Positions 1,766 through 28,282 of a stretch of DNA of 32,000 nt are shown here, piece after piece (position 1 is the first letter of the stretch; the number at the start of each line of letters is the position of its first letter). The position numbers and the translations under genes are program-made. Where the stretch lies: the IMG/VR virus record IMGVR_UViG_3300045988_146431, positions 12,528 to 44,527 of that record. One strand, 5' to 3'. Below the pieces are notes generated by a model. It did no database searches. It was not told the origin of the DNA and saw only the letters and a list, made by a program, of their open reading frames with translations. Source of the stretch: a virus.

Positions 1766-2966
1766 TGTAACTAATTCCTCCTTGATTTGATTTAGTTACC
1801 TGGATGTATTCACCTCGAATAAAACGTTTCTTACCTTCATCATTTGGTAAAGGCGCTTTGTTCATAATGTTCAATGCCCCATCTGTATCAATCATTCCAC
1901 GGTCAAACATTTGAGTCGCAACATTCAATTTTGTTTGTGTCGAATCATACTGTAAACGATCGCTTGTTAGAATGATTTCACTACCATTCATAATCTGATT
2001 TACGGAATATAACATTCCACTCAACACTTCTCCAACTTCAATAAAGAAAGGTTCGATAATTGATTCATAAAATGCATTCCATTCATCAGGTTTATATTTA
2101 TTTTGTAAAATAGCTTCACTAATTCCAAAATAGCTGTATACACTATTTTCAATTGCTTGCTTCTGCTTGGCATCCACTAATAGTGGTTTACTTTCAATTG
2201 GTTTTACTTCATCAAAACGAGTATCAACAAGGAATACACCTGTTTCATTTTCGTTCAGGTTATTTCTTAAGATCATGTTCTGTTGTTCCTTGTAATCCTC
2301 ATCATCATCAATCGGTGTTGAAATTCTAGCCAAGAATCGAACAATAGAACTCGACTTAATCGCATTGATTGCTCCTTCTTCCTGAGCAAGCATCAATTTA
2401 GCTGTTGTATCAAATGCATCATTCGTATCACCAAAGTAATCATTTTTATACTGCATTTGTCTTAAATGCCCTACTTTGCTGTATTCAATCAATTTTGTTT
2501 CGCCATAGATGAAATTAAAATAAATATAAACTACACCATTGATTTCTTTTAACTGACACTGACTTGGTACTGCGGGCCATAATCCTTTTATATAGCCGTA
2601 CTCATCTTCAATTGGAATAATGAAAGCATTGTTTTCTGCAAAATAGATAGTTGCCAATCTTTTGTAAAATTGACTAGCTGTCATATAAGGATTTGGCTTT
2701 TTCTTAACCAAATAGTTATATATCTTAGCCTTGTAGTCTTTGTTTGTCAGTTCAGGTGAAGCCTTCCCACATGACGTGGCAATTCGATTGATACATGCTC
2801 TGCATAGTCCAATCTCATATATTCCACCATCATATGATGAATACACTGGTGAATATCCACCTAAGCTTGCAAACATAGAGTGTAATTGATTTTGTTTAGG
2901 TGCTGGCTTATTTAGTCCTAACAGACTTCCTAGCAAACCAAATCTTTTTCTTCTGCTTTTAGCCAC
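1683..2966 (-). CDS. Portal protein (HK97-type)
   Basis: 427-aa ORF directly downstream of TerL. GTG start with AGGAAGGTG RBS, sharing 1 nt with the TerL stop. Size, position and acidic/Pro-rich C-terminus fit a portal. Confidence 0.85.
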   Translation of the reverse strand: MAKSRRKRFGLLGSLLGLNKPAPKQNQLHSMFASLGGYSPVYSSYDGGIYEIGLCRACINRIATSCGKASPELTNKDYKAKIYNYLVKKKPNPYMTASQFYKRLATIYFAENNAFIIPIEDEYGYIKGLWPAVPSQCQLKEINGVVYIYFNFIYGETKLIEYSKVGHLRQMQYKNDYFGDTNDAFDTTAKLMLAQEEGAINAIKSSSIVRFLARISTPIDDDEDYKEQQNMILRNNLNENETGVFLVDTRFDEVKPIESKPLLVDAKQKQAIENSVYSYFGISEAILQNKYKPDEWNAFYESIIEPFFIEVGEVLSGMLYSVNQIMNGSEIILTSDRLQYDSTQTKLNVATQMFDRGMIDTDGALNIMNKAPLPNDEGKKRFIRGEYIQVTKSNQGGISYNGETEPQQNPNALDPVPDEPGDGKQTD

Positions 2967-4624
2967 TAATTCACCTTCCTTTTCTTGTTTTCAAGGCGGT
3001 ATTTAAATGTATCCCACCATTTTTGTCTTACTGTATATGCATCAATAACAGATGCATATCCATCAATATGTTTTCTTGGATCAGTTTTAATCATGCGGAC
3101 ACGATTGTCCTCCGCAACTTTCTTTAATGCCACACTAGACATATGTGCTTGTAACAATCCATTTGTTCCTGTATGAACAAATCCATCTCTTACGTATCCT
3201 GTAAATTCATTAATAACCGGTGTAAGGTTAGTACCCTGAATGACATCATCCATCTTGTATCCATATTTCTTCATATCATCCACAAGATACTGAGCCGAAT
3301 AACGGTCATATCCAACGACCACGCAATAAATCTTGTATTTCTTGCGTAGCATTTCAAACCATTCCGTAACATCTTCATACCGTACAAAGTTTTCCCCACT
3401 TGGACTTAAATATCCCAATTGAATAAATCTTGTATATGGTATTTTGTCTCTTTCTTCTAGCTCCTTGATTTTTAATGTTGGAAGCCAAAAATGAGTAAAT
3501 ATGTAGTCCTGCTCTTGAATTCGTATAACTACAGATGCGGCTGTTAAATCGGTTGTTTGTGACAAGTCAATTCCACCAACTGCATATGTATGTGCAAAAT
3601 CTTCAAATCTAAGTTCTTCACCTTTAACTTTGTTAATATCTTCTGCACTAAATAATGCTTCTGTTGAATTCTGTTTGATATTCGCATATTTTGTTATGAA
3701 TTCAGCCTTATATGTCGGTGAGCTATGTGCTTTTAAAATTTCATTCTGCAAATATTCATAAGAAACCGATATTCCAAGGTTTGGCATTGCTTTTCTTAAT
3801 TCAATAGGATCATCCCATTTTTGAATATCATCAATCATATAAAAGAAAGGCAACATTTGTTTTTCATCAGACGTACCAAGTAAAACAGATGTTCCACGAA
3901 CAAATAATTCATCATATAATCCTTCATCAATATAGTTTGCGGTACTTACAGGAATATAAAGTGGATCAGGTCTTGCACCACCTGCCGACAACATAACGTT
4001 GTACATTTTCATACCCGCTTCACCTTCCCAGGCTGCAAACTCATCAAAGATTGTCAAATATGGGTTGAATCCATCTGACTTCTTAGATGCAAAGGCAATT
4101 GGCTCCCATCGACAATTGTTCTGTTTCATGTAGATATCTGTTCTACGTTTTTTCACTCTTTGACTCAACGCTTTAGAGTGTTCCATCATTTGATACAGAA
4201 CATTGTAAATGATCTGCGCTTGTTTTAACTTTGGCGCTATATTGTATATCTGCATACCTGCTTCATCAGAAGTGAATCCAACATCAAGTTCAATACCTGC
4301 ACAAAGAAATGATTTTCCTTGTTTTCGGCCCATAACCGTAGGTATTTCACGAAACTGCCTTTTTCCATTCTTATCAACAAGCCCGAATATGCACGCAATA
4401 TAGTATTTTTGCCAAGGCTCAAGCTTCACTTTTGTTGTTTTTCCTTCTACGTGATGACAAAACGTTTCAATAAACGCTATATGCATTTCCGCTTTTTTCT
4501 CATCATAGAAGAAATCTCCATTTGCTAAACCTCTTTCAACATATTGAAGATTAAGCTTTATCCACTTACCGACTACATCTTCACCCGATTTAATACGTTC
4601 TTTATAAATGTCTAGATATTTCAT
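2966..4624 (-). CDS. terL: Terminase large subunit
   Basis: 552-aa ORF. N-terminal ATPase region (VMGRKQGKSFLCAG Walker-A-like; TIFDEFA Walker-B-like) and a C-terminal nuclease-like region. ATGA overlap with TerS. Confidence 0.9.
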   Translation of the reverse strand: MKYLDIYKERIKSGEDVVGKWIKLNLQYVERGLANGDFFYDEKKAEMHIAFIETFCHHVEGKTTKVKLEPWQKYYIACIFGLVDKNGKRQFREIPTVMGRKQGKSFLCAGIELDVGFTSDEAGMQIYNIAPKLKQAQIIYNVLYQMMEHSKALSQRVKKRRTDIYMKQNNCRWEPIAFASKKSDGFNPYLTIFDEFAAWEGEAGMKMYNVMLSAGGARPDPLYIPVSTANYIDEGLYDELFVRGTSVLLGTSDEKQMLPFFYMIDDIQKWDDPIELRKAMPNLGISVSYEYLQNEILKAHSSPTYKAEFITKYANIKQNSTEALFSAEDINKVKGEELRFEDFAHTYAVGGIDLSQTTDLTAASVVIRIQEQDYIFTHFWLPTLKIKELEERDKIPYTRFIQLGYLSPSGENFVRYEDVTEWFEMLRKKYKIYCVVVGYDRYSAQYLVDDMKKYGYKMDDVIQGTNLTPVINEFTGYVRDGFVHTGTNGLLQAHMSSVALKKVAEDNRVRMIKTDPRKHIDGYASVIDAYTVRQKWWDTFKYRLENKKRKVN

Positions 4625-4995
4625 TTAAATCTGCTCATGAACTCATCCAATTCATCACCTTTTTTTCCGGATACTTCTGTTGTTTTTGAAAGTGAAGTAG
4701 GTGACAAGCCAAGTTCTTTGCAGTACTTCATGATCTGATCACGTAATTGAACGGTAATAATGTAGTATGGTGAGCGCGATAAATTCGTTGCACCGCCCTT
4801 GTTCGTATATTCAACAACCATCTGTAGTGATTTGTAGCCATTTGCTTTACTTGAATCTCTCCATTGCTTCATTGTTGAATCATATTGGGCCAAGGCATCT
4901 GCAAGTGAATCAACCGCAACCGAATATTCAGGAGAAAATGTGCCTAAATTCTCTAGTTGTGAATTGATTCTTTTTTTCCATGCTCCTTTTTGCAT
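4621..4995 (-). CDS. terS: Terminase small subunit (P27-family-like)
   Basis: 124-aa ORF immediately upstream of TerL. GGGAGG RBS 8 nt before ATG 4995. C-terminal ...IMKYCKELGLSPTSLSK... resembles the P27-type TerS motif ElGLTPxSRxK. Confidence 0.7.
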   Translation of the reverse strand: MQKGAWKKRINSQLENLGTFSPEYSVAVDSLADALAQYDSTMKQWRDSSKANGYKSLQMVVEYTNKGGATNLSRSPYYIITVQLRDQIMKYCKELGLSPTSLSKTTEVSGKKGDELDEFMSRFK

Positions 4996-5339
4996 TCATC
5001 ATCCTCCCTTCCACATCCTATAAGCATTCCGTTTTCATCAAACTCAAAAGATGGTTTACGTTTGGAATGTTCTTCAGCATGACATAAGTCACACAACGCT
5101 TCCAAATTGGAATCGCCAAATAGAATGTGTACATCTCTATAGTTGTCCTGGTCAATGTGTGTTTTGTGATGCACACAAGTCGACCTGGTATAGATACCTT
5201 TTTTCAAACATCTTTCACAAAGTGGATGTGCCTTCCTATACGCTTTGCTTTTCTTTTCCCAAGCCTTGCTTGAGTAAAATTTTCTAGCATAATTTCTAGC
5301 ACCTGTTTTTGTTGCTTCTGAACCATAATATTTTTTCAT
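4953..5339 (-). CDS. HNH endonuclease (packaging-associated)
   Basis: CERCLKKG...CVHHKTHIDQDNYRDVHILFGDSNLEALCDLCHAEEH is an HNH/zinc-finger signature. The track ORF starts at a TTG (5396); I prefer the first ATG (5339, MKKYYGSE). The 3' end overlaps TerS by 43 nt. Confidence 0.8.
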   Translation of the reverse strand: MKKYYGSEATKTGARNYARKFYSSKAWEKKSKAYRKAHPLCERCLKKGIYTRSTCVHHKTHIDQDNYRDVHILFGDSNLEALCDLCHAEEHSKRKPSFEFDENGMLIGCGREDDECKKEHGKKESIHN

Positions 5340-5431
5340 ATCGCTACATTCAAAGTTTTGACCATAACTACAGTTAACAGATTTAAAGGACGACAAAAAC
5401 TAACAGTAAACACTTTGAATGCAGTGATATG

Positions 5432-5461
5432 AAAAAGACCCATGTTTCCACAGGTCTTTTT
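5432..5461 (-). terminator. Intrinsic terminator inside the leader of the packaging/late operon (A-run, GC stem, T-run; could act in both directions)
   Basis: AAAAAGACC (5432-5440) pairs with GGTCTTTTT (5453-5461). On the minus strand the hairpin is followed by TTTTTCAT. It lies about 100 nt downstream of the promoter box at 5538-5574 and about 90 nt upstream of the HNH ATG. Confidence 0.5.
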
Positions 5462-5537
5462 CAACGGGCACTAAAATGAAACAATCCAAGAACTACCTTG
5501 TTTGTTCTAGAAGATGTTTTCCAATCTTCACGACTAC

Positions 5538-5574
5538 AGAATATCACGGTTTTTCTTTGTACACTGTACAAAAT
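5538..5574 (-). promoter_or_regulatory. Late promoter box 1: 17-bp palindrome TTTGTACA-N-TGTACAAA, N12, TATTCT
   Basis: The 19-nt string tttgtacactgtacaaaat (5556-5574) is identical to 28264-28282. In both copies a -10-like hexamer (minus-strand TATTCT here, 5543-5538) follows after exactly 12 nt. There is no sigma-A-like -35. Confidence 0.45.
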
Positions 5575-5584
5575 GAAGAAATTC

Positions 5585-5990
5585 AGATTTTACCCCCTTG
5601 TCGCACACCCATGACCCGGTTTTTTTGAACTCCCCACGCCGTTCCCCAAAGTGCAAAAAACTTTTTGAAAGATAGGGGCGGTCTATGCTGATCTGACCCA
5701 TGCTATGGCGCTTTCAGGGTTAAAAATCAAACCTATGCAGCTATCACAACGCCGCCACGTTCACGGCTTCAGTCATATGACATTTATATATTTGTTATTG
5801 TGTTGAAAGATGTTTCAACATGCATTGTTGAAAGCGTTGTTTCATAACATGGCCATGACTACATTAATAGAACACACGCGCACGTTCTTATATATGCAAT
5901 AAGTCTTGCATCACTCCAATATATTGGATTATATATATCAACTCCATACACTCCAACACGTCCATTGTCTTCCTGGAACTGAAGCAAACC
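5585..5990. other. Candidate cos / packaging-initiation region
   Basis: ORF-free stretch upstream of HNH-TerS-TerL. It contains a locally GC-rich block (about 5590-5775, e.g. cccccttgtcgcacacccatgacccgg, ggggcggtc, gccgccacgttcacggc) in an otherwise AT-rich genome. It also has TGTTGAAAG twice (5801-5809, 5826-5834; the first forms a hairpin with 5813-5820) and ACTCCA three times (5913, 5941, 5950). Confidence 0.3.
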
Positions 5991-5995
5991 CCCAC

Positions 5996-6020
5996 AAAAA
6001 AAAGGACGTTCACAACGTCC
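5996..6020 (-). terminator. Intrinsic terminator (minus strand)
   Basis: GGACGTT (6004-6010) pairs with AACGTCC (6014-6020). On the minus strand this is followed by a run of 8 T (plus-strand A-run 5996-6003). Confidence 0.5.
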
Positions 6021-6040
6021 ATACATGTATATATTACTAG

Positions 6041-6146
6041 TCTGTTAACTATATGTTATAAGACTAGAACCGAACACGCTTAAAAGCCTTTTAAATAGGC
6101 ACTTGCGTGCATGTTTGAAAAGATAAAAGCTTTTTGAAAAAATGAG
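6041..6146. repeat. Direct repeat copy A (about 100 bp, imperfect) bracketing the accessory island
   Basis: 6046-6066 taactatatgttataagacta versus 11040-11060 taactatatattatcagacta (19 of 21 identical). Then taaaagcct-N3-aaataggc (6081-6100 versus 11074-11093), followed by a looser shared A/T-rich tail (tttgaaaagataaaagctttttgaaa versus ttttctaaaataaaaactttgtgaaa). Confidence 0.6.
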
Positions 6147-6182
6147 CACTAAAAAAAATAAGTTTAGGAGGTGTAAACATAG

Positions 6183-6214
6183 AAGAAAAAAGACACGCTC
6201 AATTTTGCGTGTCT
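6183..6214 (-). terminator. Intrinsic terminator of the HTH gene
   Basis: AGACACGC (6191-6198) pairs with GCGTGTCT (6207-6214), followed on the minus strand by TTTTTTCTTC. The stop codon at 6213-6215 sits in the stem. Confidence 0.6.
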
Positions 6215-6455
6215 AGTCTTTGTTTTCTTGTATATCATTTATATTTAATTCAATTATTTTTTCTTTTGTTGTCTTGTCAATTATATTTATTTCCAAGCCC
6301 ATCCAATCGCATAACTTTATAAACTCACCTAAATTCATTCTATCGTTTGAAATCGTGTTACTTAATGATTGACGCGTACGGTTTATATGTTTTGCGTATT
6401 CTATTTGTGTTTTGTTTCGCATCGTGAACAACGCTTTTATTTTCTCTTTTAACAT
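6213..6455 (-). CDS. XRE-family helix-turn-helix regulator (80 aa)
   Basis: MLKEKIKALFTMRNKTQIEYAKHINRTRQSLSNTISNDRMNLGEFIKLCDWMGLEINII is a typical short Cro/CI-type HTH. ATG 6455 is preceded by AAAGGA. The 57 upstream codons of the track ORF cover the promoter region and look non-coding. Confidence 0.7.
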   Translation of the reverse strand: MLKEKIKALFTMRNKTQIEYAKHINRTRQSLSNTISNDRMNLGEFIKLCDWMGLEINIIDKTTKEKIIELNINDIQENKD

Positions 6456-6480
6456 TTTTTGCCGTCCTTTCTTTATGTGT

Positions 6481-6582
6481 ATATTATCATATTTACTTTG
6501 TAAATTCAAACTACAACGTTGTAAATAAAAAATATTACATTCTATTATTGACAATGTAATATTTATGATGTACATTGTAAAT
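6481..6582. promoter_or_regulatory. Divergent promoter/operator region of the island
   Basis: Minus strand: TTGAAT (6509-6504), 17 nt, then TGATAATAT extended -10 (-10 at 6486-6481). Plus strand: TTGACA (6548-6553), 17 nt, then TACATT (6571-6576). TTGTAAAT occurs three times (6498, 6519, 6575). An 11-bp perfect inverted repeat AATATTACATT / AATGTAATATT lies at 6531-6541 and 6553-6563. Confidence 0.45.
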
Positions 6583-6619
6583 GTCTTAAGAGACAAGCCA
6601 CACGAAAGGAGGTGCAAAC

Positions 6620-6787
6620 GTGGCAAAGTATAAACGTAGCAAACCGATGAAACGTCGCGATAGAAAAAAGCGCGAAAAAAAAGAGCGCATGATTTCGTAC
6701 CTATCCAAAACGTTCGAAATTATATACACGCTCTTAATCGGTGAAGCCCTCAAGCTTCTTGCTAAATATCTAAGTGACTTATTTTAG
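6620..6787 (+). CDS. Small protein, 55 aa (basic N-terminus, hydrophobic C-terminus)
   Basis: GTG start 7 nt after AAAGGAGG. Hand translation: (M)AKYKRSKPMKRRDRKKREKKERMISYLSKTFEIIYTLLIGEALKLLAKYLSDLF. Below the ORF-track length cutoff. Confidence 0.5.
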   Translation: MAKYKRSKPMKRRDRKKREKKERMISYLSKTFEIIYTLLIGEALKLLAKYLSDLF

Positions 6788-6914
6788 TCACTTAGGTACT
6801 TATATTATACCACGTTTTAAAATATGGAACTACTAAAAATAGCGTTATTACTATCGTTAGCATTTAATGCATATCTTTTAAAAAAAATAATTGAAAAGTA
6901 AGGAGGTAAAGATT

Positions 6915-7415
6915 ATGTGTGAAATGAAAGCTTATATTACAAATTTAGGAAAATATAACGAGGGTGAATTGGTTGGAAAGTGGATCAGTTTCCCAATCGA
7001 TGAGGACGATTTTCAAGATGAACTTGAAAGCATTGGAGTGAAAGAAAACACAATGTATGAAGAGTGGTTTATAACTGATTATTATTGTTCATTGTTCGAT
7101 ATGTATGATGCATTCGGTGAATATCCAAGTATTGACGATATTAACGAAGTGGCTGAAGCATTAGAAGATAATGAAAGTGTATTCACTGCTTTATTGGAAG
7201 TATGCAGCTATGAGGACGCTTTAAAATACTTAAAAAGTGAAAATTATACTTTTTATCAGGGTATGACGTTGGAAGATGTAGCGCATGAATTAATTGAAGA
7301 ATGTTACAACCTCCCAGAAATTGCACAAAAATATTTTGACTATGAAGCGTTTGCGTGTGATCTTGAGTATGATGGATATACTGAAACTTCAAACGGAGTT
7401 ATTTGTTTATGGTAA
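6915..7415 (+). CDS. ardA: ArdA-type antirestriction protein
   Basis: MCEMKAYITNLGKYNEGELVGKWISFPIDEDDF...YEEWFITDY...YFDYEAFACDLEYDGYTETSNGVICLW closely parallels the remembered Tn916 Orf18/ArdA sequence (QVYIANLGKYNEGELVGAWFTFPID...YIDYQAYGRDL...). Highly acidic. AGGAGG lies 8 nt before ATG 6915. Confidence 0.9.
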   Translation: MCEMKAYITNLGKYNEGELVGKWISFPIDEDDFQDELESIGVKENTMYEEWFITDYYCSLFDMYDAFGEYPSIDDINEVAEALEDNESVFTALLEVCSYEDALKYLKSENYTFYQGMTLEDVAHELIEECYNLPEIAQKYFDYEAFACDLEYDGYTETSNGVICLW

Positions 7416-7435
7416 CCCGCAAAGATCTTGACAAG

Positions 7436-7470
7436 ATGAGCGCCTTCAAGGTGCTCATACTTGCATTTTT
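7436..7470 (+). terminator. Possible terminator/attenuator after ardA
   Basis: ATGAGCGCC (7436-7444) pairs with GGTGCTCAT (7450-7458; one G-U pair). The T-run (cattttt) starts only 6 nt later, so this is weak. Confidence 0.35.
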
Positions 7471-7575
7471 AAAATTATATTTAGCAGCGTGCACATCTAC
7501 ATTGATCATGGGTATAATATTGGGCCTTTTAAATATCATACTCCCATTTATTTATTAATTGCAGGAGGTTAAACA

Positions 7576-7848
7576 ATGGAACTTTTAGAAATTAAATTAT
7601 TGCATAAATATGCAAGAATAAGATCATATATGAATGATCTTATTTCTGGTAATTTTGTTATATATGATTTTCTTTATGAATGTCTTGCGGATCATATTAA
7701 ATCATTTATTTATGATCTTGCTTATATCGAAAATGAAAAAGTTATACGCGTTTATTATGATCAACTTTTAGTTGATTCTAAACAAGTAAGCAAAGAACTT
7801 TATACACTTGTTATAACTATTTTTGAAGATAATGAATGGAGGTTTTAA
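7576..7848 (+). CDS. Hypothetical protein (90 aa)
   Basis: AGGAGG 7 nt upstream of the ATG. Co-oriented with and packed into the ardA operon. Confidence 0.6.
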   Translation: MELLEIKLLHKYARIRSYMNDLISGNFVIYDFLYECLADHIKSFIYDLAYIENEKVIRVYYDQLLVDSKQVSKELYTLVITIFEDNEWRF

Positions 7849-7850
7849 AA

Positions 7851-8081
7851 ATGAATAATAAAGAATATATTGAGTTTACAGAAAAAAAACTAGATCGACT
7901 AAATGGATCTAGCTGCAAGCCTTACACAATTACAAAACATTTAAACGGTTTATATGATCTTAACTATGGTTTAGATACCATTGCTTGGATGCTTGAACCG
8001 CGCGAGCTTTGGCTACTTGTAAACACATTATATACATTGGATATTTTAGGAGGGCTAAAAAATGACAATGTGGAAGCGTGA
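7851..8081 (+). CDS. Hypothetical protein (76 aa)
   Basis: ATG 7851 is preceded by GGAGG (the track start 7836 lacks an RBS). Overlaps the next gene by 20 nt. Confidence 0.6.
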   Translation: MNNKEYIEFTEKKLDRLNGSSCKPYTITKHLNGLYDLNYGLDTIAWMLEPRELWLLVNTLYTLDILGGLKNDNVEA

Positions 8082-8652
8082 ACGAAACCATTTTAATTAT
8101 TATGTTACAAACGAAAGAAAACAACCACACATTTACGTTGAAGCGTTAGGAACTCCAAGCGCTTCAACTGAAAAAGTTTTAAAAGATCATGGTTTTAAAT
8201 TTGATCATAATAAATGTATGTATGCAGCAGCTCAAACAAATGACTTGAGGTTGTTCGTGGCGCATGATCTTGACAAGCTTTTCAACTATGATATTCAAAT
8301 ATATTTCAATACTGAAGCTAAAAAAGAACTTTTCGCGCCTGATATCCAAGAAATAAAAGATATCTGTTATTATTTCAAAATTTATAAATGCTATGTTGAT
8401 ATTTTAAATAAGGATCTTTTTAAGATCTGTAAGCCTGGATCAAAAAGCTTGCTAGCAACTTATAATACCAGCTTTAAAACTATAGATGTTTTTAATAGAA
8501 ACAAGCTTATAGAAAGCTATGTGTATAATAATGGTAAAATCGAGAAAATGATCGTAGAAAAAGCTGCACCAAAAAAGAAGAAAGCAGCAACTACAGAAAC
8601 AGAACAACAAAAAATCAATAAAATGTTAGAAGAGTTTGAGTTTCCATTTTAG
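8062..8652 (+). CDS. Hypothetical protein (196 aa), Lys-rich C-terminal tail
   Basis: TAGGAGGG lies 7 nt upstream of the ATG. No family recognised. Confidence 0.65.
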   Translation: MTMWKRERNHFNYYVTNERKQPHIYVEALGTPSASTEKVLKDHGFKFDHNKCMYAAAQTNDLRLFVAHDLDKLFNYDIQIYFNTEAKKELFAPDIQEIKDICYYFKIYKCYVDILNKDLFKICKPGSKSLLATYNTSFKTIDVFNRNKLIESYVYNNGKIEKMIVEKAAPKKKKAATTETEQQKINKMLEEFEFPF

Positions 8653-8665
8653 GGGGTAAAAATAT

Positions 8666-9223
8666 ATGGGATATATTGGAAATAAAATGAGCGTGCGCGC
8701 TTATGAAGCTTATGAAAGTGGTGAAAAGCCACTTTCAAAATGGACTAAAAACGATATTATAGAATGCGTTTTAAATGTTAGAAATGACTTTCAAGAAAAA
8801 GAATTAAAAATTTATAGCAAAGAAGTTTTAAAAGCTTTTCTAATCTGTAGCTCTTGGCATCATACGGGATCATATTTCAATGAAACTAATTTCTATAGTT
8901 TAGATCTTGATTTTATTGAACTATCAAAAATTGAAATAATCCAGGTACTTGAAAAGAAGAAAAAAGATCTTGAAAAAGAGAAAGAAGAAAAAAAGATTTT
9001 AAAACTTCAAAAATGCAAATTTAAATATATTGAATGGGCCGGAACTCGAAAACATCCAAAAGCAATAGAAAAAGAATCATACGGCATCATAAAAGGATCA
9101 TGGATATACTACAAAGACGGCAAAAAGTCATTAAATGGTAAATATGTTCATGTGGTTGAAATGCTTGAACGTGCACCGCGCGGAACTGCTGCACTATTTA
9201 AACAAATTGAAAAGGACTTGTGA
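8666..9223 (+). CDS. Hypothetical protein (185 aa)
   Basis: AGGGGGT RBS. N-terminal MSVRAYEAYESGEKPLSKWTK and SSWHHTGSYFNETNFY motifs look familiar from mobile-element leading-region proteins, but I cannot name the family. Confidence 0.65.
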   Translation: MGYIGNKMSVRAYEAYESGEKPLSKWTKNDIIECVLNVRNDFQEKELKIYSKEVLKAFLICSSWHHTGSYFNETNFYSLDLDFIELSKIEIIQVLEKKKKDLEKEKEEKKILKLQKCKFKYIEWAGTRKHPKAIEKESYGIIKGSWIYYKDGKKSLNGKYVHVVEMLERAPRGTAALFKQIEKDL

Positions 9224-9237
9224 AAGTCCTTTTTTTA
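9211..9237. terminator. Bidirectional intrinsic terminator between convergent genes
   Basis: AAGGACTT (9212-9219) pairs with AAGTCCTT (9224-9231), followed by TTTTTT. An A-run sits on the other side. The stop TGA of 8666..9223 is in the loop. Confidence 0.7.
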
Positions 9238-9786
9238 ATGTCTTCTCATTTCTTTTTGAATCAGCTTTTTTTTGACTGGATTCGATGCGAAAAAGTTCAT
9301 GAAAAGTTTTGTTTTAAACTCGTATTCTTTTTGATCCATTTCTTTTATATCCAAAACTCTTTTAAATATCACTATCGCAATAAAGTTTGCAAACAAGTTT
9401 GCATCTTTTTCTATTTCCTGATTCTCATAGTGTTTGCTGCTTGAATCCTTATAACTTTCAAGTTCATTTTTCCATATAGAAACGCTTCTTTCATCCATAG
9501 AAAATACTTTTTGATTCTTCTTATATACACATGCATATTGATATAAATGTCTAATTTCATGAGCTAGATATATATAAACTAGACTTCTATCTTTGCATAA
9601 ATCCAAGTTCACACAAATTACATTTTCTTTAGGGTATGATGTACATATGCTGGTATCTTTCACTTGAAAAAGTTCTTTATTGATTGGCTTATTTTTAAGA
9701 TCATAAAACTTTTCATTTTCTTTAAAGTAAACTTTTGGAATCTTTATATTTAATAGTGTGCATAGAAAACTTACATAATCATTCAT
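9235..9786 (-). CDS. Putative zinc metallopeptidase (HExxH)
   Basis: 183-aa ORF with YIYLAHEIRHLYQYA (HExxH). Size and context are compatible with ImmA/IrrE-like or SprT-like peptidases. Family not resolved. Confidence 0.6.
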   Translation of the reverse strand: MNDYVSFLCTLLNIKIPKVYFKENEKFYDLKNKPINKELFQVKDTSICTSYPKENVICVNLDLCKDRSLVYIYLAHEIRHLYQYACVYKKNQKVFSMDERSVSIWKNELESYKDSSSKHYENQEIEKDANLFANFIAIVIFKRVLDIKEMDQKEYEFKTKLFMNFFASNPVKKKLIQKEMRRH

Positions 9787-9823
9787 GCATCCATTATATC
9801 TGAAAAACTTTATTTTGAAAAAC

Positions 9824-10111
9824 TTATTTATCTAGGATCAAAAAAACTTTTTCAAGTTGTTCTTGAGACGTTGGAAAAAACTTTTGAGATTCTTTTTCAT
9901 ACTTGCATAGAATCGAACCGTCAAAAAACTTTTCCAGCAACTGAGAAAACTTTTCTTTCTTCACATAATAAACATAATTCACAGGCACATCTTCATCATC
10001 ATGCGCATTGTATTCAAAAACTTTTTCAACAAACTTAGAACAAATAACACCAATCTGTACATTATCATACTTTACAAAAACTTCTTTGTAAGAAAACTTA
10101 TTTGTATCCAT
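9824..10111 (-). CDS. Hypothetical protein (95 aa), paralog of the next gene
   Basis: ATG 10111 lies 7 nt after AGGAG (the track start 10144 would overlap the upstream gene). Rich in K-F / K-V-F dipeptides. Loosely alignable to 10134..10487 (FVKYDN..VIC versus FVQYGD..VCV). Confidence 0.55.
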   Translation of the reverse strand: MDTNKFSYKEVFVKYDNVQIGVICSKFVEKVFEYNAHDDEDVPVNYVYYVKKEKFSQLLEKFFDGSILCKYEKESQKFFPTSQEQLEKVFLILDK

Positions 10112-10133
10112 TTCATCACTCCTAAAAAACTTT

Positions 10134-10487
10134 CTACACATCAACTAATGTTATCATAAACTTTTTATAATCTTCATCTGACTTTAGATAAATCTTATTG
10201 CAACCATTCATTACGTCTTCATAGTTTAAGCAATCAATTTCATTATCTAAAAACTTTCTATATAAACTTTTGAATTGCGGTTCACAAATATAATGTTTAA
10301 TAACGAGTATACCATTCTTATCATAATTACACCTATAAAACTTTTCATCTGCCATATAAACACATACAACACGATCTCCGTATTGTACAAATAAACTTTG
10401 TGTATTATTGATCATAAACAGCTTATTAAGCTCCTCACCTATATTTATATGTTTTTCCCATAAAAACTTTGGTAATTTGTATTTCAT
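10134..10487 (-). CDS. Hypothetical protein (117 aa)
   Basis: AGGAG lies 8 nt upstream of ATG 10487. Confidence 0.6.
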   Translation of the reverse strand: MKYKLPKFLWEKHINIGEELNKLFMINNTQSLFVQYGDRVVCVYMADEKFYRCNYDKNGILVIKHYICEPQFKSLYRKFLDNEIDCLNYEDVMNGCNKIYLKSDEDYKKFMITLVDV

Positions 10488-10536
10488 TTTCTTTTCTCCT
10501 AAAAACTTTTATAAAAAACTTTTCATAATACCGTTC

Positions 10537-10812
10537 CTATTTATCTGCAATCGTTTCTACATAACAATTATAATAAATATATCTTTTTCCATCATAGTCA
10601 AATTTTACATATCCACCATCCTTTGCTTCAATATCAATTCTTCCCTCATAGCTTGCTAAAACTTTTCCATCTGCTGTATACACATTGATTATTCTATCCA
10701 ATCCACCATTCAAATCAGATTTTACATCAGTACCAAAGCGATCCATAGATGCACATCCAAATAAGGAAACGCCAATCATTCCAACCATTAATAATTTGTA
10801 TAATTTATTCAT
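10537..10812 (-). CDS. Small lipoprotein (91 aa)
   Basis: MNKLYKLLMVGMIGVSLFGCASMD is a signal peptide with lipobox LFGC. GAGGA RBS lies before ATG 10812 (the track ORF starts 18 codons earlier). Confidence 0.7.
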   Translation of the reverse strand: MNKLYKLLMVGMIGVSLFGCASMDRFGTDVKSDLNGGLDRIINVYTADGKVLASYEGRIDIEAKDGGYVKFDYDGKRYIYYNCYVETIADK

Positions 10813-10852
10813 TTTATTCCTCTTTTCTTTGACAATCCTATAAAGCACACAT

Positions 10853-11017
10853 TTATTCAAATTCAATATATCTTGTATCTTTCACTTTCCCACATTTCAA
10901 ACACACAAGATACTGAGTCTCACCGCTGATACAATGAAACATCTCATTCTTTACACACCAAGTAAATTCATGCTTACAGAATAATCTTTTAAAAAACCAT
11001 TTAATTTTGTTTATCAT
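10853..11017 (-). CDS. Possible small zinc-ribbon protein (54 aa)
   Basis: Hand translation: MINKIKWFFKRLFCKHEFTWCVKNEMFHCISGETQYLVCLKCGKVKDTRYIEFE (CxH...C...CxxC). Weak RBS. Below the track cutoff. Confidence 0.35.
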   Translation of the reverse strand: MINKIKWFFKRLFCKHEFTWCVKNEMFHCISGETQYLVCLKCGKVKDTRYIEFE

Positions 11018-11030
11018 CTGAACTTCTTTC

Positions 11031-11136
11031 TATGTCCGATAACTATATATTATCAGACTAACTACAAACCTTTTAAAAGCCTAGTAAATAGGCTACTTTG
11101 TAACACTTTTCTAAAATAAAAACTTTGTGAAATTTT
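11031..11136. repeat. Direct repeat copy B (partner of 6041-6146)
   Basis: See copy A. Offset between copies is about 4.99 kb. On the minus strand it contains the hairpin AGCCTA-N5-TAGGCT followed by TTTTAAAA, and then a TGATAATAT extended -10-like element. Confidence 0.6.
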
Positions 11137-11155
11137 CAACCACGTTTTTATGCAA

Positions 11156-11386
11156 TTAATAACACCTTGTTATTGGAATTAAAGTAGTTATTCTTCCATT
11201 GTATACAGGTATAAAAGTAGTGCTGCAATGTGATGATGTATTAGACGATGTATTATTTGAGTCATCAGAAACAACAGCTGCACACAACACAATTAAAACA
11301 ATTGTAGTAATAAGCGTACCAAACAATATTATTTCACAGATATAATCTCCAATCCATTCACCTATTCTTTTTAACATATCAATCAT
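11156..11386 (-). CDS. Small membrane protein (76 aa)
   Basis: One hydrophobic helix (ICEIILFGTLITTIVLIVLCAAVV) and an S/N/T-rich tail. ATGA overlap with the upstream gene. Confidence 0.5.
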   Translation of the reverse strand: MIDMLKRIGEWIGDYICEIILFGTLITTIVLIVLCAAVVSDDSNNTSSNTSSHCSTTFIPVYNGRITTLIPITRCY

Positions 11387-11850
11387 TTGCTTAAATCTCC
11401 CATGACGAGCTTTTTAAGCTCTTTTTTCATTGCGTAATACATTTTCATTCTGCTACAGTACTTTTCTCCTGAAAGCTTCTCAAACGACTCTCCATCGATA
11501 TAATGACGTTTCATATATAAACGAACATCATCATTTGGAATAAGATCAATAATTGTTTCAACTTCTCTCATCTTTCCTAAGATAAGATTCTTGTCATCTT
11601 CAAGCACTTTTTCTTTTGAAATAAACTTTACAAGAACATCATTTGTAATGTCCTTATTTTTCTTTGAATCCAACCTTTGTTCAAATGATGGTGACTTTGG
11701 ATCTGAAAATTCTTTTTTGCGAACCTCCAAATCCTTCAAAATTCCATCTAACGATTTAAACTTTCTTTCATAGATCTTGAACATTTCAAGTTTTTTAATC
11801 AGTGTATCCACCTGAACATCTACATATTCTTCATAATCCGTTTTACTCAT
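11383..11850 (-). CDS. Putative phage transcription regulator, sigma-70 region-4-like (DUF1492/RinA/ArpU style)
   Basis: 155 aa. Coiled-coil N-terminus, then DDVRLYMKRHYIDGESFEKLSGEKYCSRMKMYYAMKKELKKL. This parallels the remembered DUF1492 C-terminus (..vl..rYi.g.t.eeIa.e...S.r.v...h..AL). AGGAG RBS. Confidence 0.5.
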   Translation of the reverse strand: MSKTDYEEYVDVQVDTLIKKLEMFKIYERKFKSLDGILKDLEVRKKEFSDPKSPSFEQRLDSKKNKDITNDVLVKFISKEKVLEDDKNLILGKMREVETIIDLIPNDDVRLYMKRHYIDGESFEKLSGEKYCSRMKMYYAMKKELKKLVMGDLSK

Positions 11851-19968: not shown

Positions 19969-20868
19969 CTACTTTCTTTTAGCATAACTCAATGATTCAA
20001 GATTCTGCTTTTTCATTTTCCTTGTTGTACGAACATAGATTCTTGTAGTTTCTAAACTAGAATGGCCCAAAATGTCAGCTAGTTCAGTAATCGCATTTTC
20101 ACCATTCTGCATCAAATACTGAATCGCAAACAAATGTCTGAATGCATGAGGATGTACTTTACCAAGCTTAATCCCTCTGCATTTACCAGCAATCATCTTT
20201 AAATCTCTAGACAACACACGAGCGTTTACAGGACTTTTCTTATCAGAAGATGTAAATATACACCCTTCTTCAATTTTGTTGTCCTTGCAATATTTTAGAA
20301 GCTCTCTGCGCAAGTCTGAACGTAGAATGATTCCTCGACCTTTTCCTTTGTTCATAACATACACATTGTCATCCGTTACTGCTTCTACAGTAAAAAACTG
20401 TAATTCGCTCAAACGAATGCCCGTATACCCAAACACCTTCATGATCTCGTATAAGTCCATACGATTGATTTCTCGGGCTTTTTTCAATAGCCTTTGAAAT
20501 TCATTAGGTTCTAGAATATCATCCAAAGAATCATCTTTCTGGACTCTTACGTTCTTCAATAAGTTCTTTGAATAATATTTCTTTAGCTTAAGAAAATTGA
20601 AATCATCATCTAAATCAATGATTTCGCTATACTTAACAAATTTATTAATAATCACGATATAATTATTCACTGTACTGATTTTATAATCATGCAGCAGTTT
20701 ATCTTTAACAGTAACTATATCGCTCTTTTTTATTTCACCATCAGGCAATGAGTTAACAAACAAAGTAGCAACATGCTTGTATTTACGAATGGTATTCTTA
20801 CTTTTCTCATCCGCTGTTTCTTCTTCAATAAACCCGTCAATTTTTGTTTGTAACTCATCCTTAGTCAT
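19969..20868 (-). CDS. Second tyrosine recombinase (XerC/D-like, 299 aa)
   Basis: GIRLSEL (Arg box), HPHAFRHLFAIQYL (HxxR) and LGHSSLETTRIYV (His and Tyr nucleophile). No arm-binding N-domain like the 365-aa integrase. Confidence 0.85.
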   Translation of the reverse strand: MTKDELQTKIDGFIEEETADEKSKNTIRKYKHVATLFVNSLPDGEIKKSDIVTVKDKLLHDYKISTVNNYIVIINKFVKYSEIIDLDDDFNFLKLKKYYSKNLLKNVRVQKDDSLDDILEPNEFQRLLKKAREINRMDLYEIMKVFGYTGIRLSELQFFTVEAVTDDNVYVMNKGKGRGIILRSDLRRELLKYCKDNKIEEGCIFTSSDKKSPVNARVLSRDLKMIAGKCRGIKLGKVHPHAFRHLFAIQYLMQNGENAITELADILGHSSLETTRIYVRTTRKMKKQNLESLSYAKRK

Positions 20869-28245: not shown

Positions 28246-28282
28246 ATAATAGTATTTAAATCGTTTGTACACTGTACAAAAT
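28246..28282 (-). promoter_or_regulatory. Late promoter box 2 (same palindrome, N12, TATTAT) in front of the holin
   Basis: 28264-28282 is identical to 5556-5574. The minus-strand -10 TATTAT (28251-28246) follows after exactly 12 nt. The holin ATG is 22 nt downstream of the -10. Confidence 0.45.

Follow-up and report, generated by a model that had tools for sequence, protein, structure and literature searches.

An old, fixed pair of repeats frames a mosaic accessory region at the genome end of an uncultured phage lineage

The window analyzed here, a 32,000-nucleotide stretch of viral DNA (bases 12528-44527 of the 44.5-kb IMG/VR record IMGVR_UViG_3300045988_146431, which has a completeness rating of 99%), contains two imperfect direct repeats, copies A and B, on either side of a group of accessory genes. 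The repeats are an old, fixed pair in a family of gut and oral phages and are not the scars of a recent excisable island. Probably the two copies are paralogous cis-regulatory cassettes that belong to a single phage lineage, each combining a weak hairpin with a putative promoter and operator. The kind of feature is ordinary, in that duplicated control elements frame a mosaic accessory region at a phage genome end. The phage genes for the late transcriptional regulator (Ltr), the HNH endonuclease, TerS, and TerL are encoded on the minus strand, and the segment enclosed by the repeats lies between the late-regulator gene and the cos/HNH/terS region, as a preliminary description of this DNA had placed it. 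The landmarks, in window coordinates, are as follows.

11383-11850, minus strand: gene for Ltr, a DUF1492 protein of the LtrB type (PF07374, 24.4 bits versus a cut-off of 21.5)
11027-11133, minus strand: repeat copy B, a block of ~107 nucleotides (nt) with an A/T-tract arm, a small hairpin plus T-run, and a dyad with -10-like hexamers
6034-6140, minus strand: repeat copy A, the paralogous block, where variable DNA gives way to the conserved cos region
4953-5396, minus strand: HNH endonuclease, the leading gene of the packaging operon
4621-4995, minus strand: terS
2966-4624, minus strand: terL

Age and conservation of the repeat pair

Local alignment of 6000-6220 with 10990-11210 bears out the ~100-bp imperfect direct repeats that had been noted from the sequence. 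Positions 6034-6140 and 11027-11133 match over ~107 nt with 79% identity and a score of 68, well above the scores of 500 shuffles (19.3±2.6, maximum 28) and of 1000 random pairs of real 221-nt windows (at most 39). The 21-nt core was recovered with 19 of 21 identities, and a 27-nt core (6040-6066 and 11034-11060) is identical at 23 of 27 positions. A degenerate pattern of the core has two occurrences in the window and none in shuffles, and the previously reported element TAAAAGCCT-N3-AAATAGGC is found within the window at 6081-6100 and 11074-11093 only. A search with an nhmmer profile identified exactly two repeat copies in the complete 44.5-kb genome. The copies are homologous, and each reads on the minus strand as a small hairpin and T-run followed by a -10-like dyad, in agreement with the preliminary description.

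Relatives were retrieved from IMG/VR as 50 regulator-anchored and 79 HNH-anchored loci. Copy B is present in 50 of 50 relatives (96% to 100% identity) and copy A in every relative that extends far enough (82% to 98% identity). Two copies are found in 84 loci, and all single-copy loci are truncated. The copies represent two stable types, A and B, with type-specific differences. Both types are present in a divergent relative (L176) with a regulator that is 78% identical, and a prophage in a Solobacterium metagenome-assembled genome (MAG) also carries both copies. Orthologous copies share 87% (A) and 91% (B) identity, versus 77% to 79% between the paralogous copies within one genome. Since orthologues are closer to each other than paralogues, the duplication is old, predates the radiation of the family, and was not followed by homogenization. 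Conservation within the Ltr-to-cos interval peaks at copy B (100% coverage and 98% identity, with variable DNA on either side), which surpasses the adjacent coding DNA in this respect. Copy A is positioned ~635-750 nt upstream of the HNH gene in all relatives. Distant HNH relatives (L116-L132) are without the DUF1492 gene, the repeats, and the palindromic box described below, and therefore cannot reveal an ancestral single-copy state.

These patterns bear on the proposal in the preliminary description that the segment is a horizontally acquired island of ~5 kb, the insertion of which duplicated a terminator-promoter unit, and which could be lost or exchanged via recombination between the repeats. 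Direct repeats do bracket accessory genes, and the GC content of the segment is slightly low (29.5% versus 32.9% for the genome). This value lies at the 6.5th percentile of equal-sized windows, a mild deviation that falls short of a foreign composition. Homologues of island genes are also present at the same position in a different lineage (L123; HExxH protein 84%, XRE-like protein 87%, and TerS 37% identical). However, none of the 50 Ltr-anchored loci is an empty site, and the gap between Ltr and HNH is ~4.5-7.5 kb in every regulator-anchored locus that reaches HNH. The hybrid junction expected from a deletion (B-specific left part joined to A-specific right flank) was not found in IMG/VR, where the A-type control pattern is present in 41 contigs, nor in JGI metagenome contigs, the latter being a weaker null without a positive control. 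The reciprocal circle junction was likewise absent from IMG/VR and from the JGI metagenomes (again without a positive control in the latter). Excision by repeat recombination thus left no trace in these data, and with 79% identity and short exact runs the repeats are a poor substrate for homologous recombination. The idea of a recent insertion conflicts with the fixation of both types in all long-enough relatives, with the higher identity of orthologues than of paralogues, and with the diverged A and B types in the lineage with 78% Ltr identity. Further, the small genes par1 and par2 inside the segment are universal, and L123 has island genes but lacks the repeats.

No integrase, transposase, or recombinase was detected among the island open reading frames (ORFs) in Pfam, PHROG, and PADLOC scans, and the PADLOC search of the island proteins returned no match. 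Variability also runs past copy B up to the Ltr stop codon. The segment is not a mobile or excisable island, and we regard the acquisition model as a whole as extremely unlikely. The description of the region as an accessory, exchangeable module holds in so far as its gene content is mosaic and exchangeable and includes an anti-restriction gene, but the module is not a single unit, since par1 and par2 are universal. The region is a cautionary case, since accessory genes framed by direct repeats do not necessarily belong to a mobile element.

The family is distant from characterized phages. Among cultured phage records there was no match to the region by megablast and none to Ltr by tblastn, and a search for Ltr homologues recovered close relatives only. 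TerL is at most 48% identical to that of any cultured phage, with top matches of ~47% identity in Butyrivibrio phages and fecal phages. The repeat element is restricted to this clade (IMG/VR, GTDB species representatives, and 151 host-family genomes), and the search of the 151 host-family genomes and GTDB species representatives yielded a single prophage only. Because this prophage of the same clade resides in one uncultured Solobacterium MAG, an Erysipelotrichaceae host is probable, and the host is probably a Solobacterium (Erysipelotrichaceae) of the human mouth or gut.

Candidate control elements within and around the repeats

The internal parts of the two copies, and the terminator that follows copy A, are listed here.

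11034-11060, minus strand: central dyad of copy B, GTCTGATAA-N7-TTATCGGAC; it overlaps -10-like hexamers (GATAAT/TAATAT/TATAGT) and is a candidate for both operator and core promoter
11078-11094, minus strand: small hairpin of copy B, AGCCTA-TTTAC-TAGGCT followed by TTTAAAA; at best a weak terminator, with a loop that is conserved too
6040-6066, minus strand: dyad core of copy A, GTCTTATAA-N7-TTAACAGAC, a degenerate palindrome
6086-6100, minus strand: small hairpin of copy A, GCCT-ATTTAAA-AGGC followed by TTTT; 98.7% paired, with changes on one side only
5996-6020, minus strand: intrinsic terminator GGACGTT-GTG-AACGTCC + T8, ~20 nt downstream of the copy A dyad, identified by terminator scan

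Across both copies the dyad takes the form GTCTGATAA-N7-TTATC(A/G)GAC and overlaps -10-like hexamers, [T/G]ATAA[C/T] and TATAGT. In copy B, 8-9 of 9 arm positions are symmetric, and variants restore a perfect palindrome (GTCCGATAA in 6 relatives and TTATCAGAC in 1). In copy A the arms pair at 82%, and two positions are mostly mismatched. The dyad half-sites are confined to A and B and are absent from the rest of the genome, including the immunity region. Copy B has a sigma-70-like match on the minus strand (TTTAAA-17-GATAAT). In every variant the first gene after copy B, be it the zinc-ribbon ORF, the lipoprotein gene, or a par-like gene, starts ~20-27 nt past the dyad with a ribosome-binding site between. 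We infer promoter and operator activity of A and B from these sequence features. The zinc-ribbon cassette has a partial copy of the dyad near its 3' end, which we discounted as too weak.

The terminator behind copy A is supported by covariation. At one pair of its stem, 39 relatives have UG (21), UA (11), or GC (6), with 91% pairing over the helix. U-G pairs as frequent as these are compatible with minus-strand RNA only, indicating a real intrinsic terminator. The divergent relative L176 keeps the terminator with compensatory changes, and conservation falls right after it. In one relative (L026), a deletion of ~170 nt removes the terminator after copy A together with the variable stretch behind it.

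In the regulatory interpretation, the arm (TTCAnAAAGnTTTT), an A/T-tract, forms the upstream part of each cassette on the minus strand. The small hairpin and T-run may be a weak insulator against upstream transcription, and the 25-bp dyad overlapping the -10-like hexamers would be the core promoter with its operator. Copy B would drive a self-contained accessory operon (zinc-ribbon ORF, lipoprotein, par1, par2, and HExxH protein) that ends at a hairpin terminator. Copy A points toward cos, and its transcript would be stopped ~35-55 nt later by the conserved intrinsic terminator. Since the terminator follows directly, copy A would yield an RNA of only ~55 nt unless termination is overridden. 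The DNA between and around the copies is a recombination-shuffled accessory region at the right end of virion DNA.

Several observations weigh against this interpretation. The terminator scan called the small hairpin in neither copy, and the loop of this hairpin is conserved although a plain terminator has no such requirement. The conserved stretch runs to ~80 nt upstream of the -10 element, farther than a simple promoter requires, and the -35-like hexamer varies among copy A variants. At copy A, a promoter directly followed by a terminator has no obvious product; a target search with the short RNA gave no complementarity above chance, the 12-nt match being an A-run. Finally, the TTGTACAnTGTACAA box sits before packaging and lysis-side genes and would serve as a late promoter equally well or better. 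Folding of both copies and of the putative short RNA gave z-scores of -0.2 to -4.0, with nothing decisive, and an Rfam scan of 5200-11500 returned chance-level matches only. A possible outer stem enclosing the small hairpin (CACGC...GCGTG in copy A, TACAAA...TTTGTA in copy B) shows apparent covariation; it was rejected because pairing is 81% among 39 sequences, many pairs are broken, and the B variants are uncompensated.

A more specific form of the favored reading is that A and B are response elements of the DUF1492 late regulator, with the arm repeats as its binding sites and the dyad region as the promoter. Copy A would then be the true late promoter, from which polymerase reads through the 5996-6020 terminator, cos, and a second leader hairpin in the manner of lambda Q at PR'-tR', and copy B would subject the accessory operon to this late control as well. 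In characterized phages, the DNA downstream of ltr combines Ltr-bound short direct repeats with the terminator of ltr and the regulated late promoter (PMC3753634). Consistent with this layout, the first block after ltr that is conserved across the clade is B, which holds three AAAGT repeats, and a conserved promoter-proximal terminator follows A. However, B is 250-600 nt from the ltr stop across a variable slot rather than immediately distal to it, A lies at a distance of 5 kb and has degenerate arm repeats, and Ltr proteins are described as activators, not antiterminators. A further candidate for Ltr control is the following box.

5557-5571, minus strand: palindromic box TTGTACAcTGTACAA followed by N12 and TATTCT, ~175 nt before HNH

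An identical TTGTACAcTGTACAA box is present at 28265-28279, and TATTCT or TATTAT (TATTNT) stands 12 nt after the box. The two boxes stand before HNH/terS and before lysis-side genes. The box ~175 nt upstream of HNH is kept in all clade members and is absent from distant lineages. It is the alternative candidate for the Ltr-dependent late promoter and probably the genuine one, and it fits the "packaging and lysis" targets of Ltr proteins at least as well as A and B, if not better. We consider direct Ltr control of A and B doubtful, though the strongest of the alternatives to the general regulatory reading.

The arm element TTCAnAAAGnTTTT suggests another function. This 14-nt sequence has exactly three exact matches, all on the minus strand (5656-5669, 6125-6138, and 11118-11131), located 16 nt from the cos nick, in the upstream arm of copy A, and in the upstream arm of copy B. 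The copies could accordingly be architectural or protein-binding sites for DNA handling (packaging, end protection, or bending) that share a factor with the cos-adjacent site. The related motif AAAGTTT is enriched ~40-fold, in one orientation, in the universal par1/par2 region, a feature found in all relatives too, and this speaks for such a function. However, TTCAnAAAGnTTTT is an A-tract/T-tract of low information, its matches with one mismatch (6 versus 1.6 expected) are only modestly significant, and 5.4 kb separate B from cos. An architectural function would also leave the dyad, the -10-like hexamers, and the fixed distance to the start codon without explanation, and we view it as very unlikely.

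The dyads also resemble core sites of tyrosine recombinases, with 9-bp arms, a 7-bp spacer, and an inner ATAA/TTAT motif, in which case the ~80-nt arm would be an accessory sequence as in cer and psi. The arm-spacer-arm geometry and central TATATA(G) are reminiscent of dif-type sites, and the accessory conservation is on one side only. A candidate enzyme is the second, Xer-like recombinase of the early region, which would mediate excision or exchange between co-infecting phages as at pdif sites.

19969-20868, minus strand: second tyrosine recombinase, early region, 299 aa (PF00589, E=2e-18)

This early-region enzyme has no obvious att partner, and L176 has a 299-aa PF00589 gene at the same early-region position. 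Gene content also switches right beside the B dyad. If the Ltr-to-cos region were a site-specifically exchangeable cassette array operated by the Xer-like enzyme, a phage counterpart of pdif modules or integron platforms, this switching would be explained. Yet no excision or circle junctions were found, and active directly repeated sites should delete the segment, which all ~50 genomes retain. The A dyad is degenerate, and in L123 the shared island genes occur in the absence of sites of this kind. Similarity to a typical Firmicutes dif, compared by eye, is limited to ~6 of 11 bases per arm, and a promoter explains the fixed short distance to the start codon after B more simply. We consider it very unlikely that the dyads are recombinase sites, and slightly less likely still that the region is such a cassette array. 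In a separate comparison by eye, a typical Firmicutes dif and the Fur 7-1-7 box were dismissed, as they have half-site resemblance only and the wrong spacing.

Accessory genes and the genome end

Contig ends locate the cos site between copy A and the packaging genes.

5631-5641, minus strand: cos cohesive end, 11 nt, CGGCGTGGGGA; absent at both physical ends, indicating a 3' overhang

Four contigs start at one base (GTTCAAAAAAAC...), two of them directly after an Illumina adapter, and one contig ends with ...TTTCGGGGAA (final letters GGGGAA) followed by adapter. The right end thus reaches window position 5642, and position 5630 is the first of the left end. The absence of CGGCGTGGGGA from both ends is as expected if 3' overhangs were trimmed during library preparation. 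This implies an 11-nt 3'-overhang cos that is HK97-like and consistent with the HNH gene. With cos mapped at 5631-5641, it is separated from copy A by ~390 nt and from HNH by ~235 nt, which makes the accessory segment the right end of the virion DNA. In lambda and SPP1, the right end is packaged last and ejected first. By analogy, the accessory right end likely enters the cell first, which would make it a sensible place for anti-restriction genes. An ArdA operon begins ~1.25 kb from the right end and reads inward, which would fit early anti-restriction.

The accessory genes form two convergent units, a minus-strand unit behind copy B and a plus-strand unit led by ArdA, with a hairpin (9210-9233) between them. 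Gene presence in relatives was scored as nucleotide coverage among the 50 loci.

9235-11017, minus strand: accessory unit 1, five genes downstream of copy B
10853-11017, minus strand: zinc-ribbon ORF, PHROG match, in 34% of relatives
10537-10866, minus strand: lipoprotein, PHROG match, in ~90%
10134-10487, minus strand: par1, in 100%
9824-10144, minus strand: par2, in 100%
9235-9786, minus strand: HExxH protein, sub-threshold DUF6782 match only, in 74%
9210-9233, strand not assigned: hairpin between the convergent units, called as a terminator on the minus strand; stem with A-run and T-run
6891-9223, plus strand: accessory unit 2, inward from the right genome end; ArdA, then 90-, 81-, 196-, and 185-aa proteins
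6891-7415, plus strand: ArdA (PF07275, E=5e-35), in 34% of relatives
6213-6458, minus strand: 81-aa ORF (the "XRE" gene of the preliminary description), with its own hairpin terminator at 6191-6214 (terminator scan), in ~8% of relatives
11156-11386, minus strand: orf76, small membrane protein in the variable slot between Ltr and copy B, in ~34-37% of relatives

The gene labels given earlier mostly stand. The opposite-strand operon led by ArdA is well founded, the match to PF07275 scoring 121.7 bits versus a gathering cut-off of 27 and covering profile positions 1-153 of 155. The lipoprotein and zinc-ribbon labels agree with PHROG matches, while the HExxH protein has the sub-threshold match only. 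The two small genes described as paralogous are related, but weakly (par1 and par2 share 26% identity, E=0.001). The label "XRE regulator" was not upheld, as the 81-aa ORF has no match to a helix-turn-helix family even at E<=1 and its sole match is an unannotated PHROG. In unit 2, the 196- and 81-aa genes are present in 92% to 94% of relatives, the 90-aa gene in ~55%, and the 185-aa gene in 48%. The leader of the ArdA operon contains a hairpin with a 13-bp stem (6767-6798, plus strand), in a block common to ~40% of relatives.

The heptamer AAAGTTT is present 28 times on the minus strand of the 44.5-kb genome, and 18 of these are clustered, in one orientation, within 9712-10665 (par1, par2, and lipoprotein), which accounts for the enrichment mentioned above. 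The cluster is kept in all 43 relatives (mean of 17.7 forward versus 3.2 reverse) and in L176 (13). The AAAGTTT-bearing strand has its 3' end at the right cos end.

Genes are exchanged at defined slots. Among 43 genomes, the ArdA slot holds four mutually exclusive alleles, namely ArdA (16), alt1 (11), alt2 (8), and alt3 (5). The alt1 and alt2 proteins are as acidic as ArdA (41 D/E versus 9-12 K/R). None of alt1, alt2, and alt3 has a Pfam match, and alt1 and alt2 also have no meaningful sequence match in the PDB. The alternatives are candidates for new anti-restriction proteins or DNA mimics, and the ArdA slot is a practical hunting ground for new anti-restriction proteins. Alternatives in the slot between Ltr and copy B are orf76, a 95-aa protein, a 130-aa lipoprotein of the Phage_VG64 family (PF25682, E=7e-33), and a 144-aa protein. 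Beyond the clade, L123 (HNH 68% and TerS 37% identical) has, in the same position, the HExxH and XRE-like homologues described above and homologues of the 185- and 196-aa proteins, with the repeats absent. The lineage with these homologues, represented by L123 (6221-9289) and L119, has HNH 59% to 68% and TerS 37% to 40% identical and no DUF1492 regulator, and the 185- and 196-aa homologues sit just upstream of HNH there. Since L123 carries island genes without repeats, gene sharing is independent of the repeats. Sequence similarities of this kind are evidence for exchange of island genes between phage lineages. Overall, this abundant uncultured phage lineage keeps two paralogous control elements and one universal gene pair as a fixed scaffold for its gene-swap slots.

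Comparison with known systems

The arrangement has partial counterparts in several known systems. Xer sites (cer/psi) and the pdif modules of Acinetobacter plasmids likewise have direct dyads with an AT-rich spacer and one-sided accessory conservation that bracket accessory genes. Here, however, no recombination products were found, one dyad is degenerate, and the sites are at promoter distance from start codons. In the lambda PR'-tR' region with Q, as at copy A, a regulator is encoded upstream and a promoter (here a promoter-like element) is followed by a conserved intrinsic terminator before cos and the late genes. The present regulator belongs to a family described as activators, however, and copy B is without such a terminator.

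Anti-restriction genes at a leading end are known from T7 (gene 0.3, Ocr) and from conjugative plasmids and Tn916, where ardA is located in the leading region. Similarly, the predicted ArdA (PF07275) is first in an inward operon, 1.25 kb from the putative first-entering end. In this phage, ArdA is one of four slot genes, the other three of which are without a known family, and the injection polarity is an inferred one. The moron concept of Hendrix and Juhala reportedly describes gene units of lambdoid phages that have their own promoter and terminator and are present or absent among relatives. The B unit looks similar, with a promoter-like element, small genes, and a predicted terminator, and is placed next to a genome end. 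Single genes are likewise present or absent among close relatives (zinc-ribbon 34%, HExxH 74%, p185 48%, ArdA 34%, and XRE-like 8%). It differs from morons in that the core genes par1 and par2 are universal in the clade and a second copy of the promoter-like element stands on the opposite side of the region.

The ltr-terS control region of Gram-positive phages with RinA, ArpU, LtrB, or LtrC regulators (Quiles-Puchalt et al. 2013, PMC3753634) shares the placement of a DUF1492-family gene upstream of cos/HNH/terS. It also shares a conserved block downstream of that gene with short direct repeats, a hairpin plus T-run, and a promoter-like element. In the present family, by contrast, there are two diverged copies of the block 5 kb apart with an accessory region between them, a terminator and cos follow the packaging-side copy, and a separate palindromic box stands directly before HNH.

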